Source of the DNA: Octopus sinensis
Lineage: Eukaryota
DNA length: 64,000 nucleotides
Direction: 5' to 3'
Assembly (NCBI RefSeq): GCF_006345805.1
Contig: NC_043001.1
Coordinates: 6,324,001 to 6,388,000 of the forward strand
The notes under the pieces are model-generated. The model had not been told where the DNA came from, did no database searches, and saw only the letters and a program-made list of their open reading frames with translations. The position numbers and the translations under genes are program-made. The stretch's first letter is position 1, and each line of letters starts with the position of its first letter. Below, piece after piece: positions 12,786 to 59,995 of this stretch.

Positions 12786-13189
12786 TGTTCATGTTTCAGC
12801 ACACGCTCTCAGATCAGGATACTTTCTATGCATGTACATATCCGTAATATATAGTATGTATAACATATGATATTTCGCGTGTATTTCTGTATTAATAGCC
12901 TATATAAATACGCATATATTGACTTGAGATGGAAGATGACATGTCTTTGCTCCCGTTCATGATGTCACCTATGATTATATAAAGCGTGATCTCATGAAAA
13001 AGAATGAACATTTGGATATATGGACACAATTTCCTGTTATTGTCTTATCTTGTACCGCTGCTTCCCCGGAGAATGTTTATTTGTTTAAAAACTGGAAAAG
13101 ACGTCACATAATGAAATACTTTATATGAACAAAAATGAGATACGTTAATATTGTATACAACTGATACGCTAATATTGATATACGCTTCT

Positions 13190-13608
13190 CCCGCATGTCC
13201 GACACTCGCATCCCAAAACAGCTCTACGGTGAACTCGGCCAGGGCAAACGCAAAATCGAAGGGCAGAAGAAGCGCTTCAAGGACAGTCTCAAAGTCTCTC
13301 TCAAAGACTTCTCCATCGGCACAGAGACTTGGGAGACACTTGCTGCCGACCGCTCATCCTGGCGCAGCGCAATCACCACAGGAGCAAAGACATCCGAGGA
13401 GAGACGGATTCAGTCAGCAGAACAGAAACGCCAGATGCGGAAAGCCAGAGCCACCTGCACCAATAGCACAGCCCCTACCCACTTCTGCCCCACCTGTGGG
13501 AGGGGCTTTCTTGCCCGGATTGGCCTCACCAGCCACCTCCGGTCTCATAGCAGCAATTCCACCAAATGATGTCAATGGTCATCTTCGAACCCGAAGGACG
13601 AACATTAT
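13190..13608 (+). mobile_element. 5'-truncated RTE (BovB-like) LINE 3' end with C-terminal C2H2 finger
   Basis: ORF 13195-13569: RIPKQLYGEL...KRFKDSLK...DRSSWR...CPTCGRGFLARIGLTSHLRSH; TATACAACTGA repeated at 13154 and 13609 (candidate TSD). Confidence 0.9.
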
Positions 13609-19108: not shown

Positions 19109-20238
19109 ATACATATATATATTCACATATCTATGTGTGTGTGTGTATACATATCAATGTGTGTATGTGTTTGTGTCTGTGCTTGTCATTCCCCCACTCT
19201 TATAACTGCTTGGTTGCCGGTGTTGTTGTGTTGAAGCTCCCGTATCCTTAGCGGTTCGGCAAAGCGATCGCTAGACTATATATTACGTTTAAGAAAAGTG
19301 TCGTCTGAAAGAAGTAGAAGAAGAAATGAAAATCACGTTACTAATTTAATATATATATTATAGAAATGAAATGTGTTTACGTAAGTAATGGTAATTGAGG
19401 TTCAATTATTTCTATTATCTGAAATTATTGAAGTTTAGGTTAAGTACTATACTAAAATTACAAAAATATTATGTATGTATTTTGTATGACTCAACTTCCT
19501 ATCAGCAAAATAATTCCGCCTTATAGAACTGTGCGATGAACGTCTACAAGTGAACAGTTGTGAGAAATTTATAAAGCCTGAATATTACTAATTATACGTT
19601 GGAAGAGCTAAGTTTATTTCAGTTACCATCTTAAAGTGTGGAGGAAGAACAGGTAACAAACGTAGTTTTTCTTGAACCTTGACAAAGACACAAAATGGCG
19701 ACAGTTAATCCCATTCAAAATTATGATTAATTTCCTTGCAATAAAGTGTTGTTTAGCATTATTTATAGTAGGTAGGTTATATACATACAAATATGTTTGT
19801 CTTGTAATATAATTTAAAATTGTATTAATTTTAAAGAAAGCTGTAAAATTTGCAAATAAAGGAGGAAAGATTATAGAAAACACCTGGGAAACGAAGTTGT
19901 TAATATATTATGTTTCGTTGATGTGTGAAGTTATTTATTATTCAGCGTTAATTCTGAAAATCCGTATCAGGTGTTGAAGAATACTTCCATTACCTTGGCA
20001 ACTACACAGAATTTCAAATACAGAACTGTATTAAGCGTATTGATATACAAATTCGATTTTAATATGATAATAAAAAGGAACATAGGTGTCAAATTATTAT
20101 GCATATCTAATGGCTCCGACTTTGGAAATAATGCATATCGATCATAGCACAAGACATATGTAATTCGATTTTCATATTTAACGTTAAATGTATATGCATA
20201 CGTAGTTATATACTTACATATCTCTGTGCTGTGCTTGT

Positions 20239-20301: not shown

Positions 20302-20893
20302 TTATTCTCGAGATTTCTCAAAAGTAGCTGTCTTCTCATACACAAGCCTTCTCCACCTGCTACGGTCAATAAATATGCCCTCCAATGTTTCAGGAGAGAT
20401 GCTTGCATCGCTTAAGGAAGCCGTCAGAAATTCTTCATACCACTTTTTTGGGGTGGGTTTATGTGGAGATCGATCTCCTTTCGTTAACTCTCCATAAAAG
20501 AGTTGTTTTAGCATCCTTGAATCTTTCATCCTGACCAGATGACCACTCTATCTGAGCTTTTGCTTAAACAAAAGGGTTTCTATACTTCCACACCGAGAGC
20601 TTTCCAATACCTCAAGAATTCTGATGCGGTTCACCCACTTAATGGCATAGATCCGGCTGAGACACATCTTATGGAAACGTTCCAGTTGCTTAAGGTGGTA
20701 TCGATATTTAATATTAGTTGGTTTGCTGCAAAAGCAAAGGTACTTACCTCCAGCATAAGCGACATTTTGTATGCAGAAGATTGTGATCTATTAGCACACA
20801 CATAGATTGATATGCAATACATTTTGAATGCATTCTTTGATGCTTGTACTGCATAAGGATTGACAGTCAGGCTCAAGGAACCTGCTGTCATGT
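20302..20893. mobile_element. Decayed RTE LINE with inverted 5' part
   Basis: Minus 20302-20692: LERFHKMCLSRI...GHLVRMKDSRMLKQLFYGEL...DRSRWR; plus 20693-20893: ISDILYAEDCDLLAH (LYADD motif). Confidence 0.8.
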
Positions 20894-23026: not shown

Positions 23027-23032
23027 TATATG

Positions 23033-23545
23033 TCTATATATATAAAACTGTAGTTGTGTGAGTGTCTGTCCCCTTCGATTTAGATTCCTAACTACTCCCA
23101 CATTTTGCGGTGCAGTTTAACCAAATTCGGGTATCTTATAGTCGTGATTCATATCAAGCCCGTCTGAGTATTAGCGCGCGTCTATGATGAGTCTACGATT
23201 TTAAAAATAATTTAATATCATTTTTTATTCCATTTTAATGCATAATTTTTCGTGTGTCGATGGCGGCGGAGTTGGCGTCAATGGTCACACCTGCACCTGT
23301 TTTCTTCTCCCTCTTCTTCCCTCCCTCGGGAAGCTGTGGAGAAGGGAGTGTAAGGAAATCAACGTCGTAAAGCGTTGTCAAGGAAACCAGCGTTCTTTTA
23401 GAACAACGACTTCATGGCTTGAAGACACCAAAACAGAAATGGCTAAGAAAGCCCGAATTGGCATATATAAGGGAAGTAACTCTCTAAAAATGCTTATATA
23501 GTTATTTCCCTTACAAACCCGAGCAACGCCGGGCGATACTGCTAG
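23033..23545 (+). mobile_element. Non-autonomous Helitron
   Basis: Starts TCTATATATATAAAACTG; ends with hairpin CCCGAGCAACGCCGGG, then CTAG followed by T. Confidence 0.8.
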
Positions 23546-34668: not shown

Positions 34669-35408
34669 CTGTATGTGTGTGACTGTGTGTGTGTGCGTGA
34701 GAGAGAGAGAGAGATATCATGTGCACGATGTCTCGAGGTAATAAATGGTCTTCTTAAGAGTAATTTTAAAAGTACAGGATGATTACGAAAACAAGGTGCG
34801 TTCCTTTGCAAACTTGTTCCTCTACATAAGAGTTACCTTTCTATATTCTCGGGTTTCTATCATATTTGGTATTTATTTGCGCATTTTCCACATTCACAAA
34901 AGCCTCATAAATTACAACTAAAGATCTGTGGGTTTTTTTTTTTTTCGATTACATTGACTGCAGCGCACAATTCGTACTCGTTTTCTCGACTCGAAAAAGA
35001 GAAAAAGTTAAAGATGACTTTGATAGAATTTGAGCGCAGAGCCGGAAAAAAAAGTTAGCGAAATGTTTTGTCCCCAAAACTAATGATTCAGGCTGGTAGT
35101 AGCCTTAATTCTTATAACTAGCGGGAGCCGAGAATGGATCACGAACATAATAGTAAAACTGTTGCGTTATTCCTGAAAACTTTATCTAAAAATCCTGAAA
35201 GCGTAATTTCTGTTGTATGTGTATCAAAAGACAGTCGTTCATCTGCTATTCATTGAAAAGTGAAGGAAATTGGAATACGATGATTACTTAATGCACTTTC
35301 TAAATATACATTATATACTTAATGCACAATTTTATAAACTTAATACACAGCACTCATAAAATAAATATTCACTCGTATTTCTCCTTTTCTTACGCAGGAG
35401 TGGCTATA

Positions 35409-35812
35409 GGCGCAGGAGTGGCTGTGTGGTAAGTAGCTTGCTAACCAACCACATGGTTCTGGGTTCAGTCCCACTGCGTGGCATCTTAGGCAAGTGTCTT
35501 CTGCTATAGCCCCGGGCCGACCAAAGCCTTGTGAATGGATTTGGTAGACGGAAACTGAAAGAAGCCTGTCGTATATATGTATATATTTATGTGTGGTTGT
35601 GTGTCTGTGTTTGTCCACCTAGCATTGCTTGACAACCGATGCTGGTGTGTTTACGTCCCCGTCACTTAGCGGTTCGGCAAAAGAGAACGATAGAATAAGT
35701 ACTGGGCTTACAAAGAATAAGTCCCAGCGTCGATTTGCTCGACTAAAGGCGGTGCTCCAGCATGGCCGCAGTCAAATGACTGAAACAAGTAAAAGAGTAA
35801 AAGAGTAAAGAG
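35409..35812 (+). mobile_element. Full-length tRNA-derived SINE family 1 (reference copy)
   Basis: A box TGGCTGTGTGG, B box GGTTCAGTCCC, CORE-like CTTAGGCAAGTGTCTT, internal TA/TG repeat, (TAAAAGAG)n tail; 13-nt head duplication just upstream. Confidence 0.93.
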
Positions 35813-35961
35813 GAAAACATTAGATTTTAAAATTCACGTGATCACAATTTCATATCTCAAAAACAAAAGTATTATAGTAATATAAATTAACAATAATAAA
35901 TCACTGAGCAAGAACCGTGAAGAGTATATGCCGCCTAAATGTGATGGACCCATAGGGACGA

Positions 35962-36126
35962 TGCTATTGTTGTTTATAGCCTCAGGAAGAATCTCCTCCG
36001 GCTGGTTAACCAAACACTGTCTGTTTCCGATTAGTATTTGCGAAGGAAAAGGGGAATTGGACATAGACAATGTGTCGTTAGCCAGCTGGAGGAGATGTCT
36101 TCTTGGGGCTATAAACAGCATTAGTA
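35962..36126 (+). repeat. ~71-bp imperfect inverted repeat with ~22-nt loop
   Basis: Arms 35962-36032 and 36055-36126 aligned by hand. Confidence 0.9.
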
Positions 36127-37495
36127 AAATAAATTATTTCGTATGTAAAATATAGAGGTCACAATTTCACGGGGGTAAAAATTTAATGCAACAAGGCATA
36201 CTTTGAAACCCACATCGTTGGAAACTTATAAGCCTTTCGGTTCAATACTTCTTTACGGACTATGTTATTCGTCTAAGTTGTCCCTCTTCTTTTCCTTTGT
36301 TTGTCAGTGTTGATGACTTTAACTCTCTCATCAGATTATTTGCGAGCCCTTGGGAATGCAGCATACAGCTGAGTATGGCCGAATACAGGTTCAGGAAATA
36401 ACAACCCAACTTAATCAAAAGTCTCTGCTTATGACTTATTGGTATTTATTGCATATGACCGACAAACACGAAACTGGTTTCTTTCTAAAGTGAATAGTAA
36501 GTTTGAGATGCGCATGCGTTAAGTGGTAGGTGATATAAAAAAATTTAGTTCAATCAAAAGAAAAACAAAATAACTTCTCACTATGCTCTAACCATCGGCA
36601 GCTGCACAACCGCTACCATCTATACTGACACCACCACCACCACTACCACTATATACAAGGTGGCCCAGAAGTAAGTTTACATTTATCACGTAGATACTTT
36701 AAAAATCATTTTATTACGTTAAAGTTTTTGTCTTACACTCACATGGTTTATGCACATCTTATACAGACAATGTTCAATCTCCCAGACGCTGAAAATGTCC
36801 ATCTTTAAGCTTGTAACATTCTTCAAACCTCTTCAGAACACTCTGACACACAGTGCGGCACAAATGCCGATCTCCATCAATTTCAGTGAATGTCACAGAA
36901 ATGTAATCTTTTAATTCATTTACTGTTTCCGAATTCTTCTTATAAACCGTGTACTTTACAACGTACCTCAAAAAATAAATCCATTTGTGAACATGGTGGA
37001 CATTCAATGCTGCCCCGTTTTCCAAACCAACGCTGTGGAAAGGCTTGGTTCAGGGAGTCTCTTAACGACTAATGTGGAGATGCTCCATCTTGTTGAGTAA
37101 TCTATATATATATAAACTGAGGATGTGTGTGTGACTGTCTGTCTGTCTATCTATCTGTGTGAATCCCTAAAACTTAAGAACTACACAACCAATTTCATTC
37201 AACTTTTTTACATATGCATTGCATAGGGTCCAGGGAGTGTCATGGACCAAATTTATTTTTTAACTCTTTGCCTAGGGCGAGCCCACAGCAATATCATATC
37301 TTCTCCATTATGAATCCCTAAAACATGAGAACCACACAACAAATTTCATTCAAATTTTACACATGCCTTACTTAGAGATAATGTAGTGTCATGGGCAAAT
37401 AAATTTCTAACTTCATGACCAGTGAAAGCTCACAGCAATATCACGTCTTCTCCACAATTTCAGTATTACTTGTTTTGATAAACATGATAGACAGA

Positions 37496-40400
37496 ACGGT
37501 TCGCCAAACAAGATCTAAAAAATGAATTAGCGGTTCGCCAACCGTGTTCGATAAAATGCATCAGCCGTTCGCCAACAGTGATCGATAAAATGACTTAGCA
37601 GTTCGTCAAACTTGATGGCTAAAGTGAATTAGCGGTTCGCCGGACGACATCGATAAAATGACTTAGCGGTTCGTTGACCGTGATCGATAAAATGAATTAG
37701 CGGTTCGCCAACAGTAATCGATAAAATGATGTAGCGGTTCACCAATCGTGATCGATAAAATGACCTAGTTGTTCGCCAACTGATCGATAAAATGACTTAG
37801 CAGTTCGCAAAACAAGATCGATAAAATGATCTACCGTTCCACAACCTTGATCGATAAAATAACTTAGCGGTTCACCAAACGTATCGATAAACGTGATCGA
37901 TAAAATGACTTAGGGGTTCGCCAACAGTAATCGATAAAATGAACTAGCGGTTCGCTAAACGTATCGATAAAATGACTAGCGGTTCGCCAAAAGTGATCGA
38001 TAAAATGACTTATCGGTTCGCCAAACGAGATCGATAAGATGACTTAGCGGTTCGCCAAACGTATTTGATAAAATGACCAAGCGGTTCGCCAACCGTTTCG
38101 ATAAAATGACTTAACGGTTCGCAAAATGAGATCAATAAAATAACTTAGTGGTTCGCTAATCGTTATCCATTCGATGAAATGAATAGCGGTTGGCCAACTG
38201 TGATTGATTAAATAACTTAGCCGTTCGCCAAAACTGATCGATAAATGAATTAGCGATTCGCCAAACGAGATGGACAAAATGACTTAGCGGTTCGCCAAAC
38301 GTGATCTATAAAATGACCTAGCGTTTCACCAACCGTGATCGATATAAATGACATAGCGGTTCGCCAAACGATATCGATAAAATGATTTAGCGGTTCGCCA
38401 CATGAGATCGATAAAATGACTTAGCCGTTCGCCAAACGATATCGATAATATCCATAAAATGAGTTGCTGGTTCGCCAACCGTGTTCGATAAATTGACTAA
38501 GCAGTTCGCAAACCATGATCGATAAAAATGACGTAGCGGTTCGCCAAACGAGATCGATAAAATGAATTAGCGGTTCCCAACAGTGATCGATAAAAATGAC
38601 CTAGCGGTTCGCCAACCATGATCGATGAAATGACTTAGCAGTTTGCCAAACGAGATCGATACAGTGAACTAGAGGTTCGCCAAACGAAATGGATAAAATG
38701 AAATAGCGGTTCGCCACCAGTGATCGATAAAGTGACTTAGCGGATCGACAAACGAGATCGATAAAATGAATTAGCGTTTCGCTAATCGTGATCGATAAAA
38801 TGACTTCGCGATTCGCCAATCGTGATCGATAAAATGACAGCGGTTCGTCAACCGTGATCGATAAAATGACCTAGCGGTTCGCCAACCATGATCGATAAAA
38901 TGATTTAGAGGTTCGTCAACCGTTTTCGATAAAATGACCTAGCAGTTGGCCAACTGTGATCGATAAAATGAATTAGCTGCTCGCTAATCATGATCGATTA
39001 AATGACTTAGCGGTTCGCCACCTGTGATGGATAAAAATGATCTAACAGATCGCCAACAAGATCGATAAAAAGACCTAGCGGTTCGCCAAACCTAACCGAT
39101 AATATGACTTAGCGGGCTGCCAACTGTGAACGATAAAAATGACTTAGCTGTTCACCAAACGTTCTCGATAAAATGACTTTGCAGTTCATCAACGATGATC
39201 GATACAATTCTAGCAGTTCGCCAACCGTTATCGATAAAAAGTACTAGCGGTTCGCCAAAACGAGTTCGATAAATTAAAATAGCGATTCGCTAAACGTAAA
39301 CGATAAAATGACTTACTGGTTCGCCAACCGTGGTCGATAAAATGAACTATCGCTTCACCAACAGTGATCGATAAAATGATCTAGCATTTCGCCAAACATA
39401 ATCGATAAAATGAATTAGCGGTTCGTTTGTCATATTCGATGAAATGACATAGCGGTTCGCCACCATGATCGATAAAATGAATTAGCGGTTCACCAAACCT
39501 GATCGATAAAATGATTTAGCGGTTCGCCAAACGCCATCGATAAAATGACTTAGCGGTTCGCCAACCGTGATCGATAAAATGACATAGTGCTTGGCCAACA
39601 GTGATCGATAAAATGACCTAGCGCTTCGCCAAACGTAATCGATAAAATGAATTAGCGGTTCGTTTGTCATATTCGATAAAATGACTTAGCAGTTCGCCAA
39701 CCATGATCAATAAAATGAATTAGCGTTTCACCAAACCTGATCGATAAAATGATTTAGCGGTTCGCCAAACGATATCGATAAAATGAATTTGCGGTTCAAC
39801 ACTGGAGATCGATAAAATGACTTAGCCGTTCGACTAAAGATATCGATAAAATAAATTAGCGGTTTGCCAAACGAAATCGATGAAAAGACCTAGCGGTTCG
39901 CCAACCGTCAGCGATAAAATGAATTAGCGGTTGACCAACCGTCATCGATAAAAATGACCTAGCGATTGGCCCAGCGTTATCGATAATATGACATAGCGGT
40001 TCGCTAATCTTGATCGATAAAATGATTAGCAGTTGGCCAACTGTGATCGATTAAATGACTTAGCCGTTCGCCAAAACATGATCGCTAAAATGACCTAGCA
40101 GTTCCCCAAACGTGACCGATAAAATGACTTAGCGGTTCACCCACCATGATCGATGAAATGACATAGCGGTTCGCCAAGCGCTATCGATAAAATGACTTAG
40201 CTGCTCGCTAATCTTGATCGATAAAATGATTAGCGGTTGGCCAACTGTGATTGATTAAATGACTTAGCCGTTCGCCAAAACATGATCAACAAAATGACTT
40301 AGCAGTTTGCCAAACGAGATCGATACAATGACATAGCGGTTCGCCAAACAAGAAGGATCAAATGACCTAGCGGTACGTTGACCGTGATCGATAAAATGGC

Positions 40401-41810
40401 TTAGAGGTTCGCCAACCGTGAACGATAAAATGACATAGCTGTTCGCCACAGTGATCTATAAACTGAATTAGCGGTTCGCCATCGTGATCGAGAAAATGAA
40501 TTAGCGGTTCGCCAACCGCGGCCGATAAAATGACTTAACGGTTCGCCATCTTGATCGATAAAATAACTTAGCGGTTAGCCAAACGTATCGATATAATGAC
40601 TAGCGGTTCGCCAAATGTAATCGATAAAATGACTTGTGATGGCTGTCAGACTTAGATGTTCACCAAACGTGATGGATAAAATGATCTAGCGGTTCGGCAA
40701 GACTGATCGATACAATGACATTAGCGGTTCGCCCAACGTGATCGATAAAATGACCTGGCGGTTCACCAAAAGTAATCGATAAAATGAATTATCGGTACGC
40801 CAAACGTGATCGATAAAATGAACTAGCGGTTCGCCAAACGTGGTTGATAAAATGACCTAGCGGTTCGCCCACGAGTTCGATAAAATGAATTAGCGGTTCG
40901 CTAATCCTGATCGATAAAATGATTAGCGGTTGGCCTCTGTGATCGATAAAATGAATTAGCGGTTCGCTAATCGTGATCGATAAAATGATTGGCGGTTCGC
41001 CAACCGTGATCGATAAAATTAACTAGCAGTTCGTCATAAATAATCGATAAAATGACTTAGCTGTTCGCCAACAGTAATCGGTAAAATACTCTAGCGGTTC
41101 GCCATCCATGATCGAAAAAATGAAATAGCAGTTCACGAAACCTGATCGATAAAATGACTTAGCGGTTCGCCAAACGTTATCGATAAAATGACCTAGCGGT
41201 TCGCCAACCGTGATCGATAAAATGACCTAACGCTTCGCCAACAGTAATCGATAAAATGAACTAGCGCTTCGCCAAACGTAATCGATAAAATGAATTAGCG
41301 GTTCGCTAATCGTGATCGATAAAATGATTAGCGGTTCCCAACTGTGATCGATAAAAATGACCTAGCGGTTCGCCAACCATGATCGATAAAATGACTTAGC
41401 AGTTTGCCAAACGATATCTATAAAATGAATTAGCGGTTCGCCAAATAAGATCGATAAAATGACGTAGCGGTTCGGCAAACGTGATCGATAAAATGAATAG
41501 CGGTTTGCCAAACGAGATCTAAAAAATAACCAGCGGTTCGCCAACCATTACCGATAAAATGAATTAAAGTTTCGCCAAACATGTTCGATAAAATGAAGTA
41601 GCGGTTCGCCAAACGATATCTATAAAACGATCTAGCGGTTCGCCATACGTGATCGATAAAATGACCTAGCAGTTCGCCAACCATTCTCGATAAAATGAAT
41701 TAAAGTTTCGCCAAACATGTTCGATAAAATGACCTTGCGGTTCGCCAACAGTGATCGATAAAATAATATAGCAGTTTGCCAAACTTGATCGATAAAATGA
41801 CCTACCGGTT
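37496..41810. repeat. 34-bp minisatellite, roughly 125 copies
   Basis: Consensus GACTTAGCGGTTCGCCAAACGTGATCGATAAAAT; period counted at 38281-38314; copy number estimated as length/34. Confidence 0.97.
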
Positions 41811-42054
41811 CCTCAGGATATGCGGGATGCTAACATCATTACGCTTTACAAACACAAAGGTGACCGTGGTGATTGTAACGATGACCGTGGAATATCTCTT
41901 CCAAGCACCGTTGGAAAGGCCTCTGCTCGCCTTATCCTGTCCAGGCTGCAACTGCCTGCTTCTCGAATTTATCCAGAATCGCAGTGTGGCTTTAGAAGAA
42001 GCAGATCAGCTATTGACATGATATTCTCCATACGCCAACTGCAGGAGAAATCCA
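41807..42054 (+). pseudogene. RTE reverse transcriptase fragment (N-terminal RT motifs)
   Basis: VPQDMRDANIITLYKHKGDRGDCN..RGISL...PESQCGFRRSRSAIDMIFSIRQLQEK. Confidence 0.92.
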
Positions 42055-42310
42055 GATTCTGGATAAATTCGAGAAGCAGGCAGTTGCAGCCTGGACAGGA
42101 TAAGGCGAGCAGAGGCCTTTCCAACGGTGCTTGGAAGAGACATTCCACGGTCATTGTTACAATCACCACGGTCACCTTTGTGTTTGTAAAGCGTAATGAT
42201 GTTAGCATCCCGCATATCCTGAGGAACCGGTAGGTCATTTTATCGAACACGTTTGGCGAACCGTTAATTCATTTTATCGATTATGGTTGGCGAACTGCTA
42301 GGTCATTTTA
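42055..42310 (-). repeat. Inverted duplicate of the minisatellite/RTE junction
   Basis: 42055-42245 is a near-identical reverse complement of 41790-41980, followed by about two further inverted monomers. Confidence 0.95.
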
Positions 42311-42682
42311 TATATGGCTTTCATTGATCACACGATCACAATTTTTTCTTTTGGTGGGGGGGTGGTAAATAGGGAAATAACCCTCATCTGTAATTTTGAT
42401 GAAATTCGAAACAGATAATGCAGTTAGCGGTTCATTAGAGAAAATATAAGAGAAAAGTCTAATTCTTCAATTGTACGTAACACGGGTAACGCCGGGTATC
42501 TCTGCTCGTGGTTTCGTATTTTTATTTTGATAATTAGGATCTAAACAGTATATGAATGCAAAAGAATAACAGCAAACTTATTTATGGGTCACCCTCTATT
42601 ATATTATCTTACAGAGATTTTAAGTCGCATGGGTTCGAATCAAACTTTTCCAAATAATAATCCTCTCTCTCTCTCTCTGTAT

Positions 42683-43091
42683 TCTTTTATTCTTTTACTG
42701 GTTTCAGTTCTTGGACTATGGCCATGCAGGAGCACCGACTTTAGTTGAACAAAACGACCCCGGGACATATTCATTGTAAGTTTAGTGCTTATTCTATCGG
42801 TCTCTATTGCCGAACCGCTAGCATACGGGAACGTAAACACACCAACATTCTAGCGATGATGTGGGGGGGGGGCAAAAACAAACACACATACACAGACACA
42901 CACACAAACACACGTAAGTATATTATATAATGGGCTTCTTCTGTTTCTGTCTACCAAATTCACTCACAAGGTTTTGATCAGCCTGAGGCAACAGTAGAAC
43001 ACACACTTAACCAAGGTGCCACGCAGTGGGACTGAACCCGGGACCATGTGTTTGGTAAGTAAACTAATTATTACACAGCCACTCCTGCGCC
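42683..43091 (-). mobile_element. Full-length SINE family 1
   Basis: Colinear with the reference copy. Confidence 0.9.
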
Positions 43092-43214
43092 TATGTGTGT
43101 ATATATATATATATTATATATATACATATATACATATATATACATGTATATGTATATATACATATATATATATGTATATATAATATATATATATACATAA
43201 GTATATATACACAT

Positions 43215-43553
43215 CGGAGACCCCCTTCGGTCACGACGCAGACCATGGGATTGCACCTAGAAAGTTACCCTCCTAGACACAAGTTCGGGCGAGGTTGTTT
43301 ATGGAAGACCAGCAGTCGCCCATGCATACCAGCCTCTCCTCTCCATGCCACTGATATTATCCAAGGGAAAGACAAAGGTCGATACAGCTTGGCACCAGTG
43401 ACGTCGCAACTCATTTCTACAGCTGAGTGAACTGGAGCAACGTGAAATAAAGTGTTTTGCTCAAGAACACAACACGCAGCCCGGTCCGGGATTCGAGCTC
43501 ACAACCTCACGATCGTAAGCTCGACGCTCTAACCACTGAGCCATGCGCCTTCA
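43215..43553 (-). mobile_element. Full-length tRNA-derived CORE-like SINE (family 3)
   Basis: Head GGCGCATGGCTCAGTGGTTAGAGCG...GCTCGAATCCC then CTTGAGCAAAACACTT CORE-like motif. Confidence 0.88.
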
Positions 43554-43633
43554 CATATACACATATACACACATATATTATTCATATATATACACAAATA
43601 TGTATCTCTATCTATCTCTCTTTCTCTGTCTTC

Positions 43634-43666
<33 letters not shown>

Positions 43667-44203
43667 TCATACAAACATATATATATATATATATATGTCT
43701 ATATACACACATATATATAAATGCTTTTGTATGTGTATTCGGGTGTGTTTTAAATACACACGCCCTTGTACGCCCAAAGTGAAACTGCGAAATTTACTTG
43801 CATTTGATATTGAAGAGTTAGCCTAACTTATTGAAATGAACCAGCATGGACTCATGTCATTCGTTAATTTTTAGACCCTCCAGAATTATTTATCGTATCA
43901 CCGTAGCAACATTATTAACAAGAGCTGTGCAGGGAATCATATGAGGAATATAATTAAGGAAAAAAATAATTCCGAGATCATTAATTCGAGTCCCCCACAA
44001 CGCAACGCCGAACCAACTATAACAACTGCGCACCTGTGATTTTGTTTTCGTACACATTTAAATGATTTCAAGAGATGATGTATCTTTGTACTAATTTCCT
44101 CTTACCTGCTTCTCATGCGGCATTCCCAGCTGCACTGTGTAATTAAATATACTTGAAATATACACTGACAGCTGTTGCACGTTTATTATTGTGGAGGTAG
44201 TCA

Positions 44204-44700
44204 GGCGGCGAACTGGCAGAATGGTTAGCACGCCGGGCGAAATGCGTAGCCGTATTTCGTCTGACGCTACGTTCTGAGTTCAAATTCCGCCGAGGTCGAC
44301 TTTGCCTTTCATCCTTTCAGGGTCGATAAATTAAGTACTATTTACGCACTGGGGTCGATATAATACACTTAATCCGTCTGTCTATCCTTGTTTATCCTCT
44401 CTGTGTTTAGCCCCTTGAGGGCAGTAAAGAGATAGGTATTTCGTCTGGCGCTACGTTCTGACTTCAAATTCCACCGAGGTCGTCTTTGCCTTTCATCCTT
44501 TCGGGGTCGATTAAATAAGTACCAGTTTCGCACTGGGGTCGATATAATCGGCTTAATTCGTTTGTCTGTCCTTGTTTGTCCCTTTTGTGTTTAGCCCCTT
44601 GTGGGTAATAAAGAAATAGGTATTTCGTCTTTTTTAACATTCTGAGTTCAAATTGCACAGAGTTGGACTTCGCCTTTCGTCCTTTCGTATTTTATTTCGG
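44204..44700 (+). mobile_element. SINE family 2, one full copy plus two headless tandem copies
   Basis: GTATTTCGTCT...TTCTGAGTTCAAATT restarts at ~44252, ~44435 and ~44620. Confidence 0.88.
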
Positions 44701-44899: not shown

Positions 44900-45735
44900 C
44901 ACAGGGTTCGATGGGTAAATTCTCACCATTTTATATTTTTAATTTAGCGCATATGCATTGTTTGTTTTTGATTTTGTCGACTACACAGTATGGTAGGGTC
45001 AGTTGGGCATCTCTGTGTGAAAAACGGTATTATGACGCAATTCATTCCGCTGGGTGTTTGGAAATGACATGATGTACTGACATACGAACATTTCTGAGCA
45101 TTTGGGTGTCAACCTGAGAACTGTGCAATCTGAGAACATGTACCGAGCGTGATGAAATTCAAACATCCAGTCATCATTGTGTTTCGAGTGATCACTAGTG
45201 ATGTCGACGTTAAACCACTAATCAACTTACCAAACGACCACAGACTCAACACAGAGGCCTGGAGGAGTTAATGCCACCTTGGGTGAAGAAGGTAACTGCT
45301 GGTAGACCCTATGTCTACCAAGAAGAACCTGCACCATGCTACACAAACAGGAGAAACCAGTGATGGGTGTCAGACAATTTCTGCGACCACACTACGCTAA
45401 CATCTGGTCACCTAACTGCAAAGCCCTTGATTCTTTTGCGTGGGGTGCAGGTGAGCGAGAGATCAACAAAACGCCTTATTACACCAAAGGTGAACTGAAG
45501 GCAAGGATTATGGCAGTATTAAGCAACTTAAAGAAGGAAACCATCCGGATGAGTTGCAAGAGATTCTGAAGTCGTCTGGAGGCTGTGGATGAAGCCAATA
45601 GCGATTTTATTGAATAAATTTACTCTTTAGTATTTCAAGATATGTTTATGTAATTTTGGTAAATATATATGTTAAAATGGGATGTCAGTGGTATTTTCAT
45701 TTTTGCGTAAATTAGACGACAATATATTCACCGTG
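44900..45735 (+). mobile_element. Decayed Tc1/mariner-superfamily (DD37D/maT-like) transposon
   Basis: GRPYVYQEEPAPCYT and NIWSPNCKALDSFAWG...TKGELKARI; imperfect inverted ends; inserted in CA/TG repeats. Confidence 0.75.
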
Positions 45736-48220: not shown

Positions 48221-48613
48221 ACTCTTTTTACTCTTTTACTTGTTTCAGTTATTTGACTGCGGCCATGCTGGAGCACCGCCTTTAATCGAGCAAATCGACC
48301 CCGGGCCTTATTCTTTTGTAAGCTCAGTACTTATTATATCGGTCTCTTTTACCGAACCGCTAAGTAACGGGGACATAAACACAGCAGCATCGGTTGTCAG
48401 GCAATGCTAGGGGGACAAACACAGACACAGAAACACACACACACACACACACACATCCATATACATATATACGACAGGCTTCTTTCAGTTTCCGTCTATC
48501 AAATCCACTCACAAGGCATAGCAGAAGACACTTGCCCAAGATGAAAAGTGGGACTGAACCCAGAACCATGTGGTTGGTTAGCAAGCTACTTACCACACAG
48601 CCACTCCTGCGCC
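48221..48613 (-). mobile_element. SINE family 1
   Basis: Colinear with the reference copy, small internal deletion. Confidence 0.9.
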
Positions 48614-53004: not shown

Positions 53005-53013
53005 ACACATATA

Positions 53014-53046
<33 letters not shown>

Positions 53047-53051
<5 letters not shown>

Positions 53052-54127
53052 GAGAGAGTGGGGGAGCACGGTTTATTCGTGATCAGAGTTAATACTGTGA
53101 TCAGAGATAACACTATATTTCGATGAAAACTACAAAAGTTTCCTAATCAAAATACTACAATTAAACGATTCTAATATGTTGATTTGTTTTATAACATGTA
53201 TTTAGTGATTAGTTTTGTTTTATCTAAGTATAAATCATAGTTTCCGTGCTGTGAATATATGAATAATAAGTTTATTTTTTCTTTGTCATATACGTCTGAA
53301 ATAAACTATTTACATAGTAAATTATTGTATTAAAATCAATCTTTCTAAATCGTTTATTAGTCGTATTGTTAGGATAAAAGGTAGTCATATAATCATATCA
53401 AAGGGAAAGGGTATCAATTATTGATTTTCCTAGAATCTATATTCCATATTTTGATAATATAACATATGTTGTAACAGTTCGAAACAACCAGTTTGAAATC
53501 CTCTCTTCAAAATATTATATTCCCTGACAGTTTAAACCATGCATCAAGATTAGATACACAAATGCAATAGATAACATACACAATATTTCATGTTCCATTT
53601 CGTCTGGTAGAAATTTGATATTGAAAATTATATCAAATATTTGAAATTAGCAAAAAAAAAAATCATTAATCCACTGTATTATTAATTAAACATTATATTA
53701 TTAAATTAAATCCATAAAACATGCAAACATAATATTTCATATATTATCGATGCGAACAGACTTCAAATATAACATAACATATATTAATATTTAAATATAA
53801 TATGACATGTATAAACATCATGCGTAAACTAACAACATAAAACAAATTATTTTGAAAGTGTTAATGTAAATGGAAACTAATATTATTTAATTAGACGGAA
53901 GGAATGTAAGTATAGATAGATATATACAAATATATATATATATGTGTGTGTGTGTATATATATATATGTGTGGGTGGGTGAGAGAGAGATTAAGCCCATA
54001 ACATACACAATGTTAAATGAAATATATTATAAAGTTGATATATACAAATATAAGCATATTTAATTCCCTCTATGTGAGATGCGCATACATACACACACAC
54101 ACAGATATTTGTATATAATACAGACAC

Positions 54128-54193
<66 letters not shown>

Positions 54194-55080
54194 CAGAGAG
54201 AGAGTGGGGGAGCACGGTTTATTCGTGATCAGAGTTAATACTGTGATCAGAGATAACACTATATTTCGATGAAAACTACAAAAGTTTCCTAATCAAAATA
54301 CTACAATTAAACGATTCTAATATGTTGATTTGTTTTATAACATGTATTTAGTGATTAGTTTTGTTTTATCTAAGTATAAATCATAGTTTCCGTGCTGTGA
54401 ATATATGAATAATAAGTTTATTTTTTCTTTGTCATATACGTCTGAAATAAACTATTTACATAGTAAATTATTGTATTAAAATCAATCTTTCTAAATCGTT
54501 TATTAGTCGTATTGTTAGGATAAAAGGTAGTCATATAATCATATCAAAGGGAAAGGGTATCAATTATTGATTTTCCTAGAATCTATATTCCATATTTTGA
54601 TAATATAACATATGTTGTAACAGTTCGAAACAACCAGTTTGAAATCCTCTCTTCAAAATATTATATTCCCTGACAGTTTAAACCATGCATCAAGATTAGA
54701 TACACAAATGCAATAGATAACATACACAATATTTCATGTTCCATTTCGTCTGGTAGAAATTTGATATTTGAAAATTATATCAAATATTTGAAATTAGCAA
54801 AAAAAAAAAATCATTAATCCACTGTATTATTAAATTAAACATTATATTATTAAATTAAATCCATAAAACATGCAAACATAATATTTCATATATTATCGAT
54901 GCGAACAGACTTCAAATATAACATAACATATATTAAATATTTAAATATAATATGACATGTATAAAACATCATGCGTAAACTAACAACATAAAACAAATTA
55001 TTTTGAAAGTGTTAATGTAAATGGAAACTAATATTATTTAATTAGACGGAAGGAATGTATGTATAGATAGATATATACAA

Positions 55081-55112
<32 letters not shown>

Positions 55113-55285
55113 ATATATATATATGTGTGGGTGGGTGAGAGAGAGATTAAGCCCATAACATACACAAAGTTAAATGAAATATATTATAAAGTTGATATAT
55201 ACAAATATAAGCATATTTAATTCCCTCTATGTGAGATGCGCATACATACACACACACACAGATATTTGTATATAAATACAGACAC

Positions 55286-55336
<51 letters not shown>

Positions 55337-55340
55337 ATAT
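53047..55340. repeat. Near-identical tandem duplication, unit ~1146 bp, TA-bounded
   Basis: CAGAGAGAGAGTGGGGGAGCACGG begins at 53047 and 54193. Confidence 0.95.
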
Positions 55341-55515
55341 ACACAAAATAATAGTTATCGCCATACTAATATGGCATTCTTATAAAAATAAGAAAAAGCT
55401 GTCCGCTTATTAGCTCCATGAGGCCATCGCCTTAAGTTAGCTATTTGATACACAAACTGTATCCATATAACCTTCGAACAAGGGAGGTCAGTCGCTCCAC
55501 ACTACTTGACTGGCA

Positions 55516-55557
55516 GCTACAGACGCGTTTCGGAGTATTGCCCCTTTTCAATGCAGC
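55516..55557 (-). ncRNA. Minimal type I hammerhead ribozyme, U3-A8 core variant
   Basis: GCUGCA-UUGAAAA-GGGG(CAAUA)CUCC-GAAA-CGCG-UC-UGUAGC. Confidence 0.8.
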
Positions 55558-56047
55558 GTAGCCAGCCAGTAGGTGTCGCTTCCGACAATCTCTGTTCGAT
55601 GGTTTTATTTACCTAGTTTCGGTGGAATACATCCACTTGTTTTCAATAATAGAAATATTAAAATAACTAAGTCTCTCTAAAAGAGAACAGCGGCAGCGTT
55701 CCCGGAAAATAATAGTTATCGCCATACTAATATGGCATTCTTATAAAAATAAGAAAAAAGCTTGTTCGAAGGTTATATGGATACAGTTTGTGTATCAAAT
55801 AGCTAACTTAAGGCGATGGCCTCATGGAGCTAATAAGCGGACAGCTTTTTTCTTATTTTTATAAGAATGCCATATTAGTATGGCGATAACTATTATTTTC
55901 CGGGAACGCTGCCGCTGTTCTCTTTTAGAGAGACTTAGTTATTCTAATATTTCTATTATTGAAAACAAGTGGATGTATTCCACCGAAACTAGGTAAATAA
56001 AACCATCGAACAGAGATTGTCGGAAGCGACACCTACTGGCTGGCTAC

Positions 56048-56089
56048 GCTGCATTGAAAAGGGGCAATACTCCGAAGCGCGTCTGTAGC
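56048..56089 (+). ncRNA. Same hammerhead with A15.1-to-G change
   Basis: Reads GAAG-CGCG-UC instead of GAAA-CGCG-UC. Confidence 0.7.
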
Positions 56090-56409
56090 TGCCGGTCAAG
56101 TAGTGTGGAGCGACTGACCTCCCTTGTTCGAAGGTTATATGGATACAGTTTGTGTATCAAATAGCTAACTTAAGGCGATGGCCTCATGGAGCTAATAAGC
56201 GGACAGCTTTTTTCTTATTTTTATAAGAATGCCATATTAGTATGGCGATAACTATTATTTTCCGGGAACGCTGCCGCTGTTCTCTTTTAGAGAGACTTAG
56301 TTATTCTAATATTTCTATTATTGAAAACAAGTGGATGTATTCCACCGAAACTAGGTAAATAAAACCATCGAACAGAGATTGTCGGAAGCGACACCTACTG
56401 GCTGGCTAC

Positions 56410-56451
56410 GCTGCATTGAAAAGGGGCAATACTCCGAAGCGCGTCTGTAGC
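56410..56451 (+). ncRNA. Same hammerhead with A15.1-to-G change
   Basis: Identical to 56048-56089. Confidence 0.7.
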
Positions 56452-56693
56452 TGCCGGTCAAGTAGTGTGGAGCGACTGACCTCCCTTGTTCGAAGGTTAT
56501 ATGGATACAGTTTGTGTATCAAATAGCTAACTTAAGGCGATGGCCTCATGGAGCTAATAAGCGGACAGCTTTTTTCTTATTTTTATAAGAATGCCATATT
56601 AGTATGGCGATAACTATTATTTTCCGGGAACGCTGCCGCTGTTCTCTTTTAGAGAGACTTAGTTATTTTAATATTTCTATTATATATACACAC

Positions 56694-56719
<26 letters not shown>

Positions 56720-56724
<5 letters not shown>

Positions 56725-58295
56725 GTATATAGATATATACAATTATATATATACGTATATATGTATGTATCGTGTACGCATTCATGCCTATGTAGACACA
56801 TATTGCACATATTTTGGCCGAATTAATATAAAAGTTGTTCAGAATTATAATTTTCAGTCATCATAAAAGCGATGACATAATGCATTTGTAGATTTTCCTA
56901 TTAATTTCCCGCCAAAGAGACATTGAAATATACCTTCACGCTTCGGGCTGAGGAACTTCACCAGCAGCAAAAGCAAACAATAAACACGAATAAAGTAATT
57001 ATTAAGAAGTTTCACACCATGCCCCCCTCCATAACACCGTTCCGAATCAGCAGGTTTTTGAAAGAATAAAATCGGTGAGCAGATTCCATTTAGAATGGTC
57101 CACGACTTCTGTGTTAGAGTTATCTCTTTTGGAAAACGACATACAGGAAGGGTGAACTCTGCTAACACTTAGACTTCTTGTATGTCGATTTCCAAAAGCT
57201 CCTACAATTTCTTGATGAACAAATCTTCTGGACCAAATACTACTGGAAACCAAACTCTATGACACAATTTCTGCCTAAAACTGAAATATCACTTTAGCTA
57301 TGAAGTTAGTGCAGACTTCATTCAGTTCGACATATGTAATCAAAAAGACAATGCATCCAGTGTTGCGTTTTTGTAATACTTATAGCTTATTGCTTCATTC
57401 GAGACTATAGTATTTATGTGATCTGATAGTCTTTAAATAATAAATGGGTGTTTGTTGAACAATGGTATAGATGTTAACCGTTGTTTAGAGAAGTATAACA
57501 CCAGATTTTAAGTGTTTCCACACTGAAATCATGAACTAAGAGACTCCTTAATCGAAAAGGAATAATCCTTCTATGATAACCTTTAAAACACTTGTGTATC
57601 TGTGTCCGGATTTAGTTTTCACAGTGTTGCTGCATTTGAACACCTATTTCATGCTTTACCCATTATTTTTTCTGAAAACTATATCTATTTTCGAAATGAT
57701 AATAACATTTCTCTTCTAGTTTATCTTTCCCATTATTGTCTTGCCTAGTTAAATATGTTTAGCAAAAAGACTGACTCTTTCTGATAAGAATTAGATATTT
57801 TTCTTTCCAAATAATCTTTCGAGTGTAAATTCTAATTTGAATCAATCAGTTACAATTTAAGTGGGACAAAAAAGATTGGCACATCTCCATTTATGTATTC
57901 ACACATAGGAGATAGAATATTTTTTGCGCAGAATAATATTTTCATGTCTCTTTTGATTTTTGCAAGATTATATTCAATTATACCCTGTTATTCTGTTCCA
58001 AAATTAAATTTCCTAAGTATGGTTTTATGGTATAATATGTTTTCAGAAATGCATATCTCACAAAACAATATATGTTGTTTATTTCAAGAAAAATAAAACG
58101 TGTCTGTTTTCAGAAAACAGAGAGCAATTAGCGAAAGTCGAAGATTTTAACATACTATCGGTGACTACATTTTATCTGCAAACATAAAAAATAGGGAAAA
58201 ATCAAAATGTAGTATCTATATATTTTACTCATAAGTAAATTTATCTGCAACAAATTTTATATTCGTCTACAGATGCAAATCATTTGAGAAGTGTC

Positions 58296-58337
<42 letters not shown>

Positions 58338-59909
58338 AGTATATAGATATATACAATTATATATATACGTATATATGTATGTATCGTGTACGCATTCATG
58401 CCTATGTAGACACATATTGCACATATTTTGGCCGAATTAATATAAAAGTTGTTCAGAATTATAATTTTCAGTCATCATAAAAGCGATGACATAATGCATT
58501 TGTAGATTTTCCTATTAATTTCCCGCCAAAGAGACATTGAAATATACCTTCACGCTTCGGGCTGAGGAACTTCACCAGCAGCAAAAGCAAACAATAAACA
58601 CGAATAAAGTAATTATTAAGAAGTTTCACACCATGCCCCCCTCCATAACACCGTTCCGAATCAGCAGGTTTTTGAAAGAATAAAATCGGTGAGCAGATTC
58701 CATTTAGAATGGTCCACGACTTCTGTGTTAGAGTTATCTCTTTTGGAAAACGACATACAGGAAGGGTGAACTCTGCTAACACTTAGACTTCTTGTATGTC
58801 GATTTCCAAAAGCTCCTACAATTTCTTGATGAACAAATCTTCTGGACCAAATACTACTGGAAACCAAACTCTATGACACAATTTCTGCCTAAAACTGAAA
58901 TATCACTTTAGCTATGAAGTTAGTGCAGACTTCATTCAGTTCGACATATGTAATCAAAAAGACAATGCATCCAGTGTTGCGTTTTTGTAATACTTAGAGC
59001 TTATTGCTTCATTCGAGACTATAGTATTTATGTGATCTGATAGTCTTTAAATAATAAATGGGTGTTTGTTGAACAATGGTATAGATGTTAACCGTTGTTT
59101 AGAGAAGTATAACACCAGATTTTAAGGGTTTCCACACTGAAATCATGAACTAAGAGACTCCTTAATCGAAAAGGAATAATCCTTCTATGATAACCTTTAA
59201 AACACTTGTGTATCTGTGTCCGGATTTAGTTTTCACAGTGTTGCTGCATTTGAACACCTATTTCATGCTTTACCCATTATTTTTTCTGAAAACTATATCT
59301 ATTTTCGAAATGATAATAACATTTCTCTTCTAGTTTATCTTTCCCATTATTGTCTTGCCTAGTTAAATATGTTTAGCAAAAAGACTGACTCTTTCTGATA
59401 AGAATTAGATATTTTTCTTTCCAAATAATCTTTCGAGTGTAAATTCTAATTTGAATCAATCAGTTACAATTTAAGTGGGACAAAAAAGATTGGCACATCT
59501 CCATTTATGTATTCACACATAGGAGATAGAATATTTTTTGCGCAGAATAATATTTTCATGTCTCTTTTGATTTTTGCAAGATTATATTCAATTATACCCT
59601 GTTATTCTGTTCCAAAATTAAATTTCCTAAGTATGGTTTTATGGTATAATATGTTTTCAGAAATGCATATCTCACAAAACAATATATGTTGTTTATTTCA
59701 AGAAAAATAAAACGTGTCTGTTTTCAGAAAACAGAGAGCAATTAGCGAAAGTCGAAGATTTTAACATACTATCGGTGACTACATTTTATCTGCAAACATA
59801 AAAAATAGGGAAAAATCAAAATGTAGTATCTATATATTTTACTCATAAGTAAATTTATCTGCAACAAATTTTATATTCGTCTACAGATGCAAATCATTTG
59901 AGAAGTGTC

Positions 59910-59915
<6 letters not shown>
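56720..59915. repeat. Near-identical tandem duplication, unit 1614 bp, TA-bounded
   Basis: Identical ORFs offset by 1614 bp (56854/58468, 57893/59507). Confidence 0.96.

Positions 59916-59995
<80 letters not shown>

Follow-up and report, generated by a model that had tools for sequence, protein, structure and literature searches.

Tandem arrays carried by Helitrons, satellites derived from short interspersed nuclear elements (SINEs) and repeats nested within one another have each already been described. In Drosophila, the DINE-TR1 system has a repeat unit that we take to be 150 bp long. Like the locus detailed below, it comprises Helitron central tandem repeats, there feeding satellite arrays, with a unit that is not given as SINE-derived in the portion of the source covered (PMC9659126; this and all other published systems are cited here from such portions). 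SINE tandems are also known in bivalves (PMC11481361), and the Helitron-type elements of oysters sometimes hold two consecutive unrelated arrays (PMC7492417). Here, we analysed 64,000 nucleotides of Octopus sinensis DNA (assembly GCF_006345805.1, contig NC_043001.1, positions 6,324,001 to 6,388,000; hereafter the window), in which positions 36654–42598 hold a Tc1/mariner element, a Helitron-type remnant, a 34-bp satellite and a piece of a long interspersed nuclear element (LINE). We hold these four identities, taken by themselves, with high confidence. Our favoured explanation, to which we give slightly better than even credence, is that a non-autonomous Helitron brought a SINE-derived 34-bp repeat into an old rosa-like mariner element, with subsequent growth of the repeat in place. 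The whole stack consists of dead, fossil mobile elements, has no apparent function and encodes no working protein; among the open reading frames (ORFs) of at least 130 aa in the window, inspection found none like an intact gene or RepHel.

The innermost layer is an array of 126 units (Table 1) with a mean identity of 86% to their consensus and a mean pairwise distance of 0.217, the unit being homologous to a stretch in the 3′ body of a tRNA-SINE present locally (28/34 in the two best copies). Outside the array, a scan with the unit profile returned seven top hits scoring 21.6–34.6, against a null maximum of 21.5 (20 shuffles), and five of these lie at the same position inside aligned SINE copies; the SINE derivation of the satellite proposed in a preliminary description of this DNA is thereby borne out. 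The local SINE has a simple-repeat tail and, judged by eye, a tRNA-like head; ARAGORN found no tRNA, and Rfam, run over 35000–44000, gave sub-threshold hits in microsatellites only. TAA-like words bracket the unit within the SINE and would permit its duplication by slippage. Six monomer positions differ from the local SINE, with the SINE state present in 2, 16, 26, 4, 0 and 8 of the 126 units, respectively; therefore, the founder had diverged before amplification or belonged to an older subfamily. No SINE flank aligns at either edge of the array, of which the right one is secondary, and the usual (not universal) trait of SINE satellites, a terminal unit running to the SINE end, is missing. By unit profile, the unique parts of the Helitron contain no monomer; 11 bp resembling the monomer at 42424, within the Helitron 3′ part, were rejected as a match (score 4.7, null mean 3.2). 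The array has no fixed higher-order repeat, mean distance being flat at 0.21–0.22 across lags 1–15, and its best duplicated segment is a 6-unit block (39345–39547 and 39582–39785, lag of 7 units, 186/203 identical). Two rare variants of the first unit (37491–37524) recur in the unit at 41496–41527, near the far end. Across 37491–41799, transitions amount to 8.6% at CpG and 7.9% at other C/G positions, i.e., there is no CpG hypermutability, which suggests little germline methylation.

This array lies between Helitron-type ends, the layout on one strand being a 5′ box, a GTCT-type microsatellite, an ~150-bp module, the array and a 3′ box. At 37100|37101, TC follows A, as is canonical for a Helitron 5′ terminus. 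The 5′ motif TC(TA)nA1-4CTG occurs at two sites in the window, 23033 and 37101 (an exact-length pattern matched 23033 alone), and the 3′ motif likewise at two, 23519 and 42482, against 0.05 expected, a count that is partly circular in that the pattern was idealised from both. The sites at 23033 and 23519 belong to a 513-bp comparison element, and the similarity of its ends to those of the large element exceeds all 300 shuffles at the 5′ end and at the 3′ end alike. The hairpin motifs of the two 3′ parts are homologous, and a weak alignment (p 0.037) extends over ~110 bp of the 3′ part; the two elements have only their ends in common, with unrelated bodies. Inverted similarity between 37160–37490 and the Helitron 3′ part was considered and rejected (p 0.39). 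A SINE copy on the opposite strand has its head 3–4 bp from the start of the 513-bp element (23029–23033, G|TC).

Enclosing these layers are the terminal inverted repeats (TIRs) of the outer element. The pair TA|36656–36685 and 42567–42596|TA agrees at 22/30 bases (24/32 counting the TA), with the right TIR the unique best match to the left one on both strands of the whole window and the next best at 20/32; the matching, TA-flanked TIRs 5.9 kb apart that had been reported are thus confirmed. On the minus strand, tblastn with the nearest full-length homologue finds transposase at 37095–36949 (E 2e-9) and 36977–36777 (E 1e-21), so that 36774–37095 represents residues 244–355 of a 355-aa protein, read in two frames (identity 63% and 51%) and interrupted by one stop and by gaps of 2, 4 and 2 codons. 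This homology runs to within 5 bp of A|TC at 37100|37101, the point at which the remnant had earlier been said to stop. The second and third Asp of the nearest homologue are separated by 41 residues, as in 52 of the 124 proteins examined (74 scorable; 40 residues in 17, 42 in 4 and 148 in 1), and the remnant's own spacing is 35 residues plus 6 codons of alignment gaps. Rosa (DD41D) elements have TIRs of 28–32 bp (PMC5490172), and the outer element likewise combines a TA target with short TIRs; together with the Asp spacing of the homologues, this points to a putative rosa/DD41D type. Identification came from homology search, as Pfam did not recognise the remnant and returned three weak unrelated hits. 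GTDB scans matched neither the transposase nor the 34-bp monomer, that collection being prokaryotic and uninformative on the host genome.

The mariner element beneath the Helitron is not intact. Approximately 240 transposase codons are absent right at the Helitron, amounting to a loss of at least 720 bp of mariner, and the left mariner breakpoint lies no more than 5 bp from the Helitron 5′ end. Had the Helitron simply inserted, the run of codons 240, 239 and onward should pick up again at 42509; the joined flanks do not restore the transposase, with 0–2 of 20 residues past 42509 matching in eight close homologues and the right-hand 88 bp scoring no higher than the null when compared with a profile of 25 transposase homologues. 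A "TKP" match at the right junction, taken as transposase continuing past the Helitron, was rejected (p 0.16 in 400 shuffles; profile scores at null level), and no Helitron target-site duplication is seen at the junctions. Since the joined mariner remnant offers 47 AT sites within 533 bp, chance insertion of a Helitron onto a pre-existing deletion junction would be expected in a few percent of cases. We think that the loss is instead tied to the Helitron, two copies of which may have recombined or whose 3′ end may have anchored a deletion; the latter might also account for CTCG where CTAG is expected.

The same few-percent figure for a clean insertion within ~5 bp of a prior deletion junction also speaks for another scenario, in which two Helitrons entered the mariner element, one at codon ~241 and the other in the 5′ untranslated part, with all the sequence in between then deleted (maybe by the fold-back described below), such that the 5′ and 3′ ends come from different elements and no single Helitron ever spanned 37101–42508. 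This would cover the missing LINE 3′ half, the array end and the mariner middle with a single event, and would fit the lack of internal similarity between both ends. However, two independent Helitrons in the same orientation would be needed within an element of ~1.3 kb, in a genome with ~1% Helitrons, and the two ends resemble those of one 513-bp element, as the ends of a single element would; we consider this scenario unlikely. Far less probable still is Pack-TIR-like capture by gap repair, in which repair of a break in the mariner switched template to a Helitron–satellite block, so that this took the place of the transposase middle. Such gap filling is known for animal TIR elements (PMC8277862) and suits an interior that is replaced rather than interrupted, but junctions that both fall on Helitron termini at A|T are not expected of filler DNA. 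With at least 720 bp of mariner missing at the Helitron and a later fold-back as the maker of the array's right boundary, it is not safe to assume that the two Helitron ends are partners; that they belong to one element is our inference.

That fold-back concerns the LINE fragment, the presence of which had been noted previously and is upheld. The piece is 76–80% identical to proteins of 1,040–1,060 aa carrying PF03372 and PF00078; among the 120 matches listed, the closest is an Octopus bimaculoides protein (83%), with three more from O. bimaculoides at 79–82%. As RVT_1 remained below cutoff in Pfam, it was again homology search that made the identification. In these homologues, the reverse transcriptase shares a single ~1,045-aa ORF with an apurinic-type endonuclease, a layout from which we take the clade to be RTE. 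The LINE and the satellite join at a shared GTTC, and LINE homology stops at residue 602, ahead of the FADD motif at 733, without the intact 3′ end and target-site duplication expected of an RTE insertion. A retrotransposed LINE normally retains its 3′ end, and the 3′ half would therefore have been lost after insertion.

Adjacent is a 257-bp inverted duplication (41724–41980 and 42055–42311, with a 74-bp spacer), which went unseen in the preliminary description, as did the 2 × 150-bp repeat and the missing transposase middle. In their LINE part, the arms differ at 2/169 bases; both carry the same six amino-acid changes relative to four Octopus homologues, plus one private change apiece, from which it follows that this is a genuine duplication that took place long after the LINE insertion. 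For the satellite part of the inverted arm, the best match is 41656–41735, two units out of register, with 5/80 differences. At the junction, there are 2 bp of inverted microhomology, and a 7-bp stem with a 1-nt loop lies at the centre; a possible variant, not separable from a simple fold-back, is a hairpin-capped break followed by deletion between the 7-bp repeats. Two other origins were rejected: (i) a read artefact, as each arm is still ancestral at one residue and unique sequence resumes afterwards, and (ii) by reasoning, twin priming, which would neither duplicate the satellite–LINE junction nor drop the LINE 3′ end. The fold-back replaced the LINE 3′ half and the right edge of the array. 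The nested stack originally envisaged thus stands as to the identities of its layers but not as clean nesting, given the mariner loss and the boundary made by the fold-back. If transcribed, 41790–42250 would form a near-perfect hairpin of ~190 bp (−406.9 kcal/mol) of LINE and satellite sequence, a possible source of small RNAs.

The following course of events would account for the locus. (i) A DD41D-like transposon inserted at a TA. (ii) A 34-bp stretch of a tRNA-SINE body would have become a tandem repeat, likely elsewhere or in an older SINE subfamily, given that no SINE flank is left and that, at six positions, almost all units differ from the local SINE. (iii) A Helitron with this repeat in the central-repeat position would have inserted at A|T, at transposase codon ~241, where the left junction is evident. 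(iv) At least 720 bp of mariner disappeared from beside the Helitron 3′ end, likely by one of the two routes named above, while (v) the array likely continued to grow in place via multi-unit duplications. (vi) An RTE-like LINE would have inserted into the array, and (vii) this LINE likely broke, the broken end folding back on the 2 bp of inverted microhomology, with ~257 bp copied before it was rejoined within the Helitron 3′ part, thereby removing the LINE 3′ half and the right edge of the array.

Carriage by the Helitron is favoured because the array occupies the central-repeat position of oyster-type elements, has no SINE flanks, matches its host in age and lies within a rare class. Helitrons make up 1.02% of the O. 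vulgaris genome (PMC13282606 supplement), and therefore an independent array would rarely be expected to land in one. The competing proposal is local origin, i.e., a 5′-truncated SINE or stray array piece entered a resident Helitron, where the 34-mer expanded by slippage and unequal exchange with the Helitron as bystander. Several features are in keeping with this: the Helitron 5′ part has a 2 × 150-bp repeat of its own, the monomer lies in the SINE 3′ half and SINE copies at 19150 and 22150 align only from mid-body, local multi-unit duplications are suggested, and any SINE tail would have sat at the right edge, which the fold-back took. Against it stand the left array edge, which is without SINE sequence, the six positions nearly fixed against the local SINE (SINE state in 0–26 of 126 units) and the improbability of a chance landing in 1% of the genome; we judge local origin improbable.

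Ages, expressed as Jukes–Cantor distance per lineage, are available from the TIRs, the array and the LINE arms, and the locus thus has internal clocks with which to order events. Values are 0.155 for the array to its consensus, 0.044 for the best block duplication, 0.049 for the local SINE pair and 0.006–0.033 for the fold-back, next to 0.165 (95% confidence interval 0.07–0.36) for the TIRs. The likely order is mariner, Helitron with array, LINE, fold-back, the first two being inseparable by age; an array depth about equal to the mariner age fits the arrival of an already diversifying repeat.

Several observations weigh against the favoured explanation. The 3′ terminus CTCG|T breaks the CTRR rule, being one base off CTAG; we read it as decay or a deletion junction, and accordingly speak of a Helitron-type remnant only. 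The hairpin at 42478–42508 has a folding energy of −3.3 kcal/mol (z −1.06), and 30/200 shuffles fold as well. Helitron-type ends at 37101 and 42508, as first claimed, hold as to the terminal similarity and the 3′ motif, and less clearly as to the hairpin. The 513-bp element begins with G|TC rather than A|TC, and the mirroring once seen between the two elements is confined to their ends. The 5′ and 3′ parts of the large element show no mutual similarity (p 0.89 and 0.39), the Helitron already holds its own 2 × 150-bp repeat, and no second copy of its body or of the array is present within the 64-kb window. The TIR age is based on 30 bp only. Support for block duplication is thin, as only the best segment lies above the 99th percentile of 300 permutations and even this is below their maximum. 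With 126 units, the array is longer than any described for the main oyster satellite in association with an element (up to 89 units; PMC8268682), and much of its growth was thus probably local. Finally, the satellite part of the fold-back is more diverged than the LINE part (5/80 vs 2/169; Fisher p 0.037), which a single fold-back does not explain and which needs later conversion or unit gain/loss.

Table 1. Positions in the window of the layers of the stack, the comparison element and the related SINE segments
Feature	Position	Strand	Remark
Further SINE copies with monomer-like segment	22731–22764, 48332–48365, 42789–42822	all −	
Comparison element, 513-bp Helitron-type	23033–23545	+	G|TC ... 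CTAG|T; unrelated body
Dispersed tRNA-SINE segment homologous to monomer	35664–35697	+	28/34
TA target and left TIR (3′ TIR of rosa-like element)	36654–36685	−	22/30 vs right TIR
DD41D-like transposase C-terminal remnant, residues ~241–355	36774–37100	−	one stop, three small deletions, one frameshift
Helitron-type 5′ end, then GT/GTCT microsatellite	37101–37160	+	A|TC, (TA)n box
Two tandem ~150-bp units in Helitron 5′ part	37160–37454	+	76% identical; unrelated to 34-mer
Satellite array, 126 SINE-derived 34-bp units	37497–41811	+	left edge eroded from ~37475
RTE-like LINE reverse-transcriptase fragment, residues ~520–602 of 1,045-aa ORF	41812–42056	+	3′ half absent
Fold-back: inverted copy of LINE piece (169 bp, 2 differences) and ~2.5 satellite units	42055–42311	−	unduplicated spacer 41981–42054
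Helitron-type 3′ part	42312–42508	+	decayed hairpin (42482–42496), CTCG|T end
58 bp without coding similarity to transposase, then right TIR (42567–42596) and TA	42509–42598	−	

The surrounding window is microsatellite-rich and holds many SINE copies. At 44252–44687, a second SINE-like family occurs in tandem (2.4 copies of 184 bp, 84%), possibly an incipient SINE satellite. A weak match to a Tc1/mariner C-terminus at 45363–45581 (E 0.044) is probably a second decayed element. Other RTE-like fragments lie at 20305–20892 and 13189–13581; at ~20705, two pieces meet in opposite orientation, as in a 5′-inverted insertion. Lastly, 53009–59976 comprises three adjacent near-perfect tandem duplications (periods of ~1.15 kb, 362 bp and 1.6 kb; identity as high as 100%), which are either very young duplications or assembly artefacts.

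A broader reading, about which we remain doubtful, would be a relay in which a retroposon gives rise to a tandem repeat that a rolling-circle transposon takes over: a family of octopus Helitrons would have a SINE fragment as central repeat and scatter it as a dispersed satellite, while the Helitron ends would also seed deletions in the target. No report of a SINE-derived array inside a Helitron, or of an octopus case, was found in the literature (including the covered part of the review PMC9659126), with Repbase/Dfam and most subscription papers lying outside the search, and such an element may already be catalogued.

Compared with known systems, the outer element resembles rosa (DD41D) elements and their deletion derivatives in its TA target, ~30-bp TIR, the DD41D spacing of its close homologues and its internal deletion; unlike in those derivatives, the deletion junction here coincides with a Helitron (PMC5490172). 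The inverted duplication is comparable to described fold-back events in having an inverted copy, an unduplicated spacer, 2 bp of inverted microhomology (found at 7/13 fold-back junctions) and adjacent loss, whereas it is interstitial, with 257-bp arms and a 74-bp spacer, the spacers there being at least 766 bp (PMC3907307). As in the SINE satellites of squamates (sSat), an internal SINE segment is tandemly repeated and incompletely homogenised; most sSats retain a longer terminal unit reaching the SINE end, however, while the octopus array has none and lies between Helitron ends (PMC10702118). PcH-Sat of the limpet Patella caerulea is likewise a mollusc satellite traced to a tRNA-SINE, but has a 179-bp unit, makes up as much as ~10% of the genome, is pericentromeric and has no Helitron link in the portion of the source covered (PMC11121367).

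The closest overall layout is that of the Helitron/Helentron satellites of the oyster Crassostrea gigas (Cg_HINE, Helitron-N; PMC7492417, PMC8268682), which share the end box, a GTCY-type microsatellite, an ~150-bp module, a central array and, less clearly, a 3′ stem-loop; the microsatellite occupies the place that (CTGT)n holds after the 5′ box of insect Hel-2 (PMC4344730). Oyster HINE ends are inserted at TT, whereas the octopus ends sit at A|T, are of the TC...CT(R)R type and gave no significant subterminal inverted repeats, thus departing from the HINE/Helentron pattern. Moreover, the monomer here, known from one locus, is a 34-bp SINE fragment. Should other copies confirm carriage, two separate routes to satellite DNA, i.e., the conversion of SINE fragments to arrays and dispersal by Helitrons, would be joined in one element.

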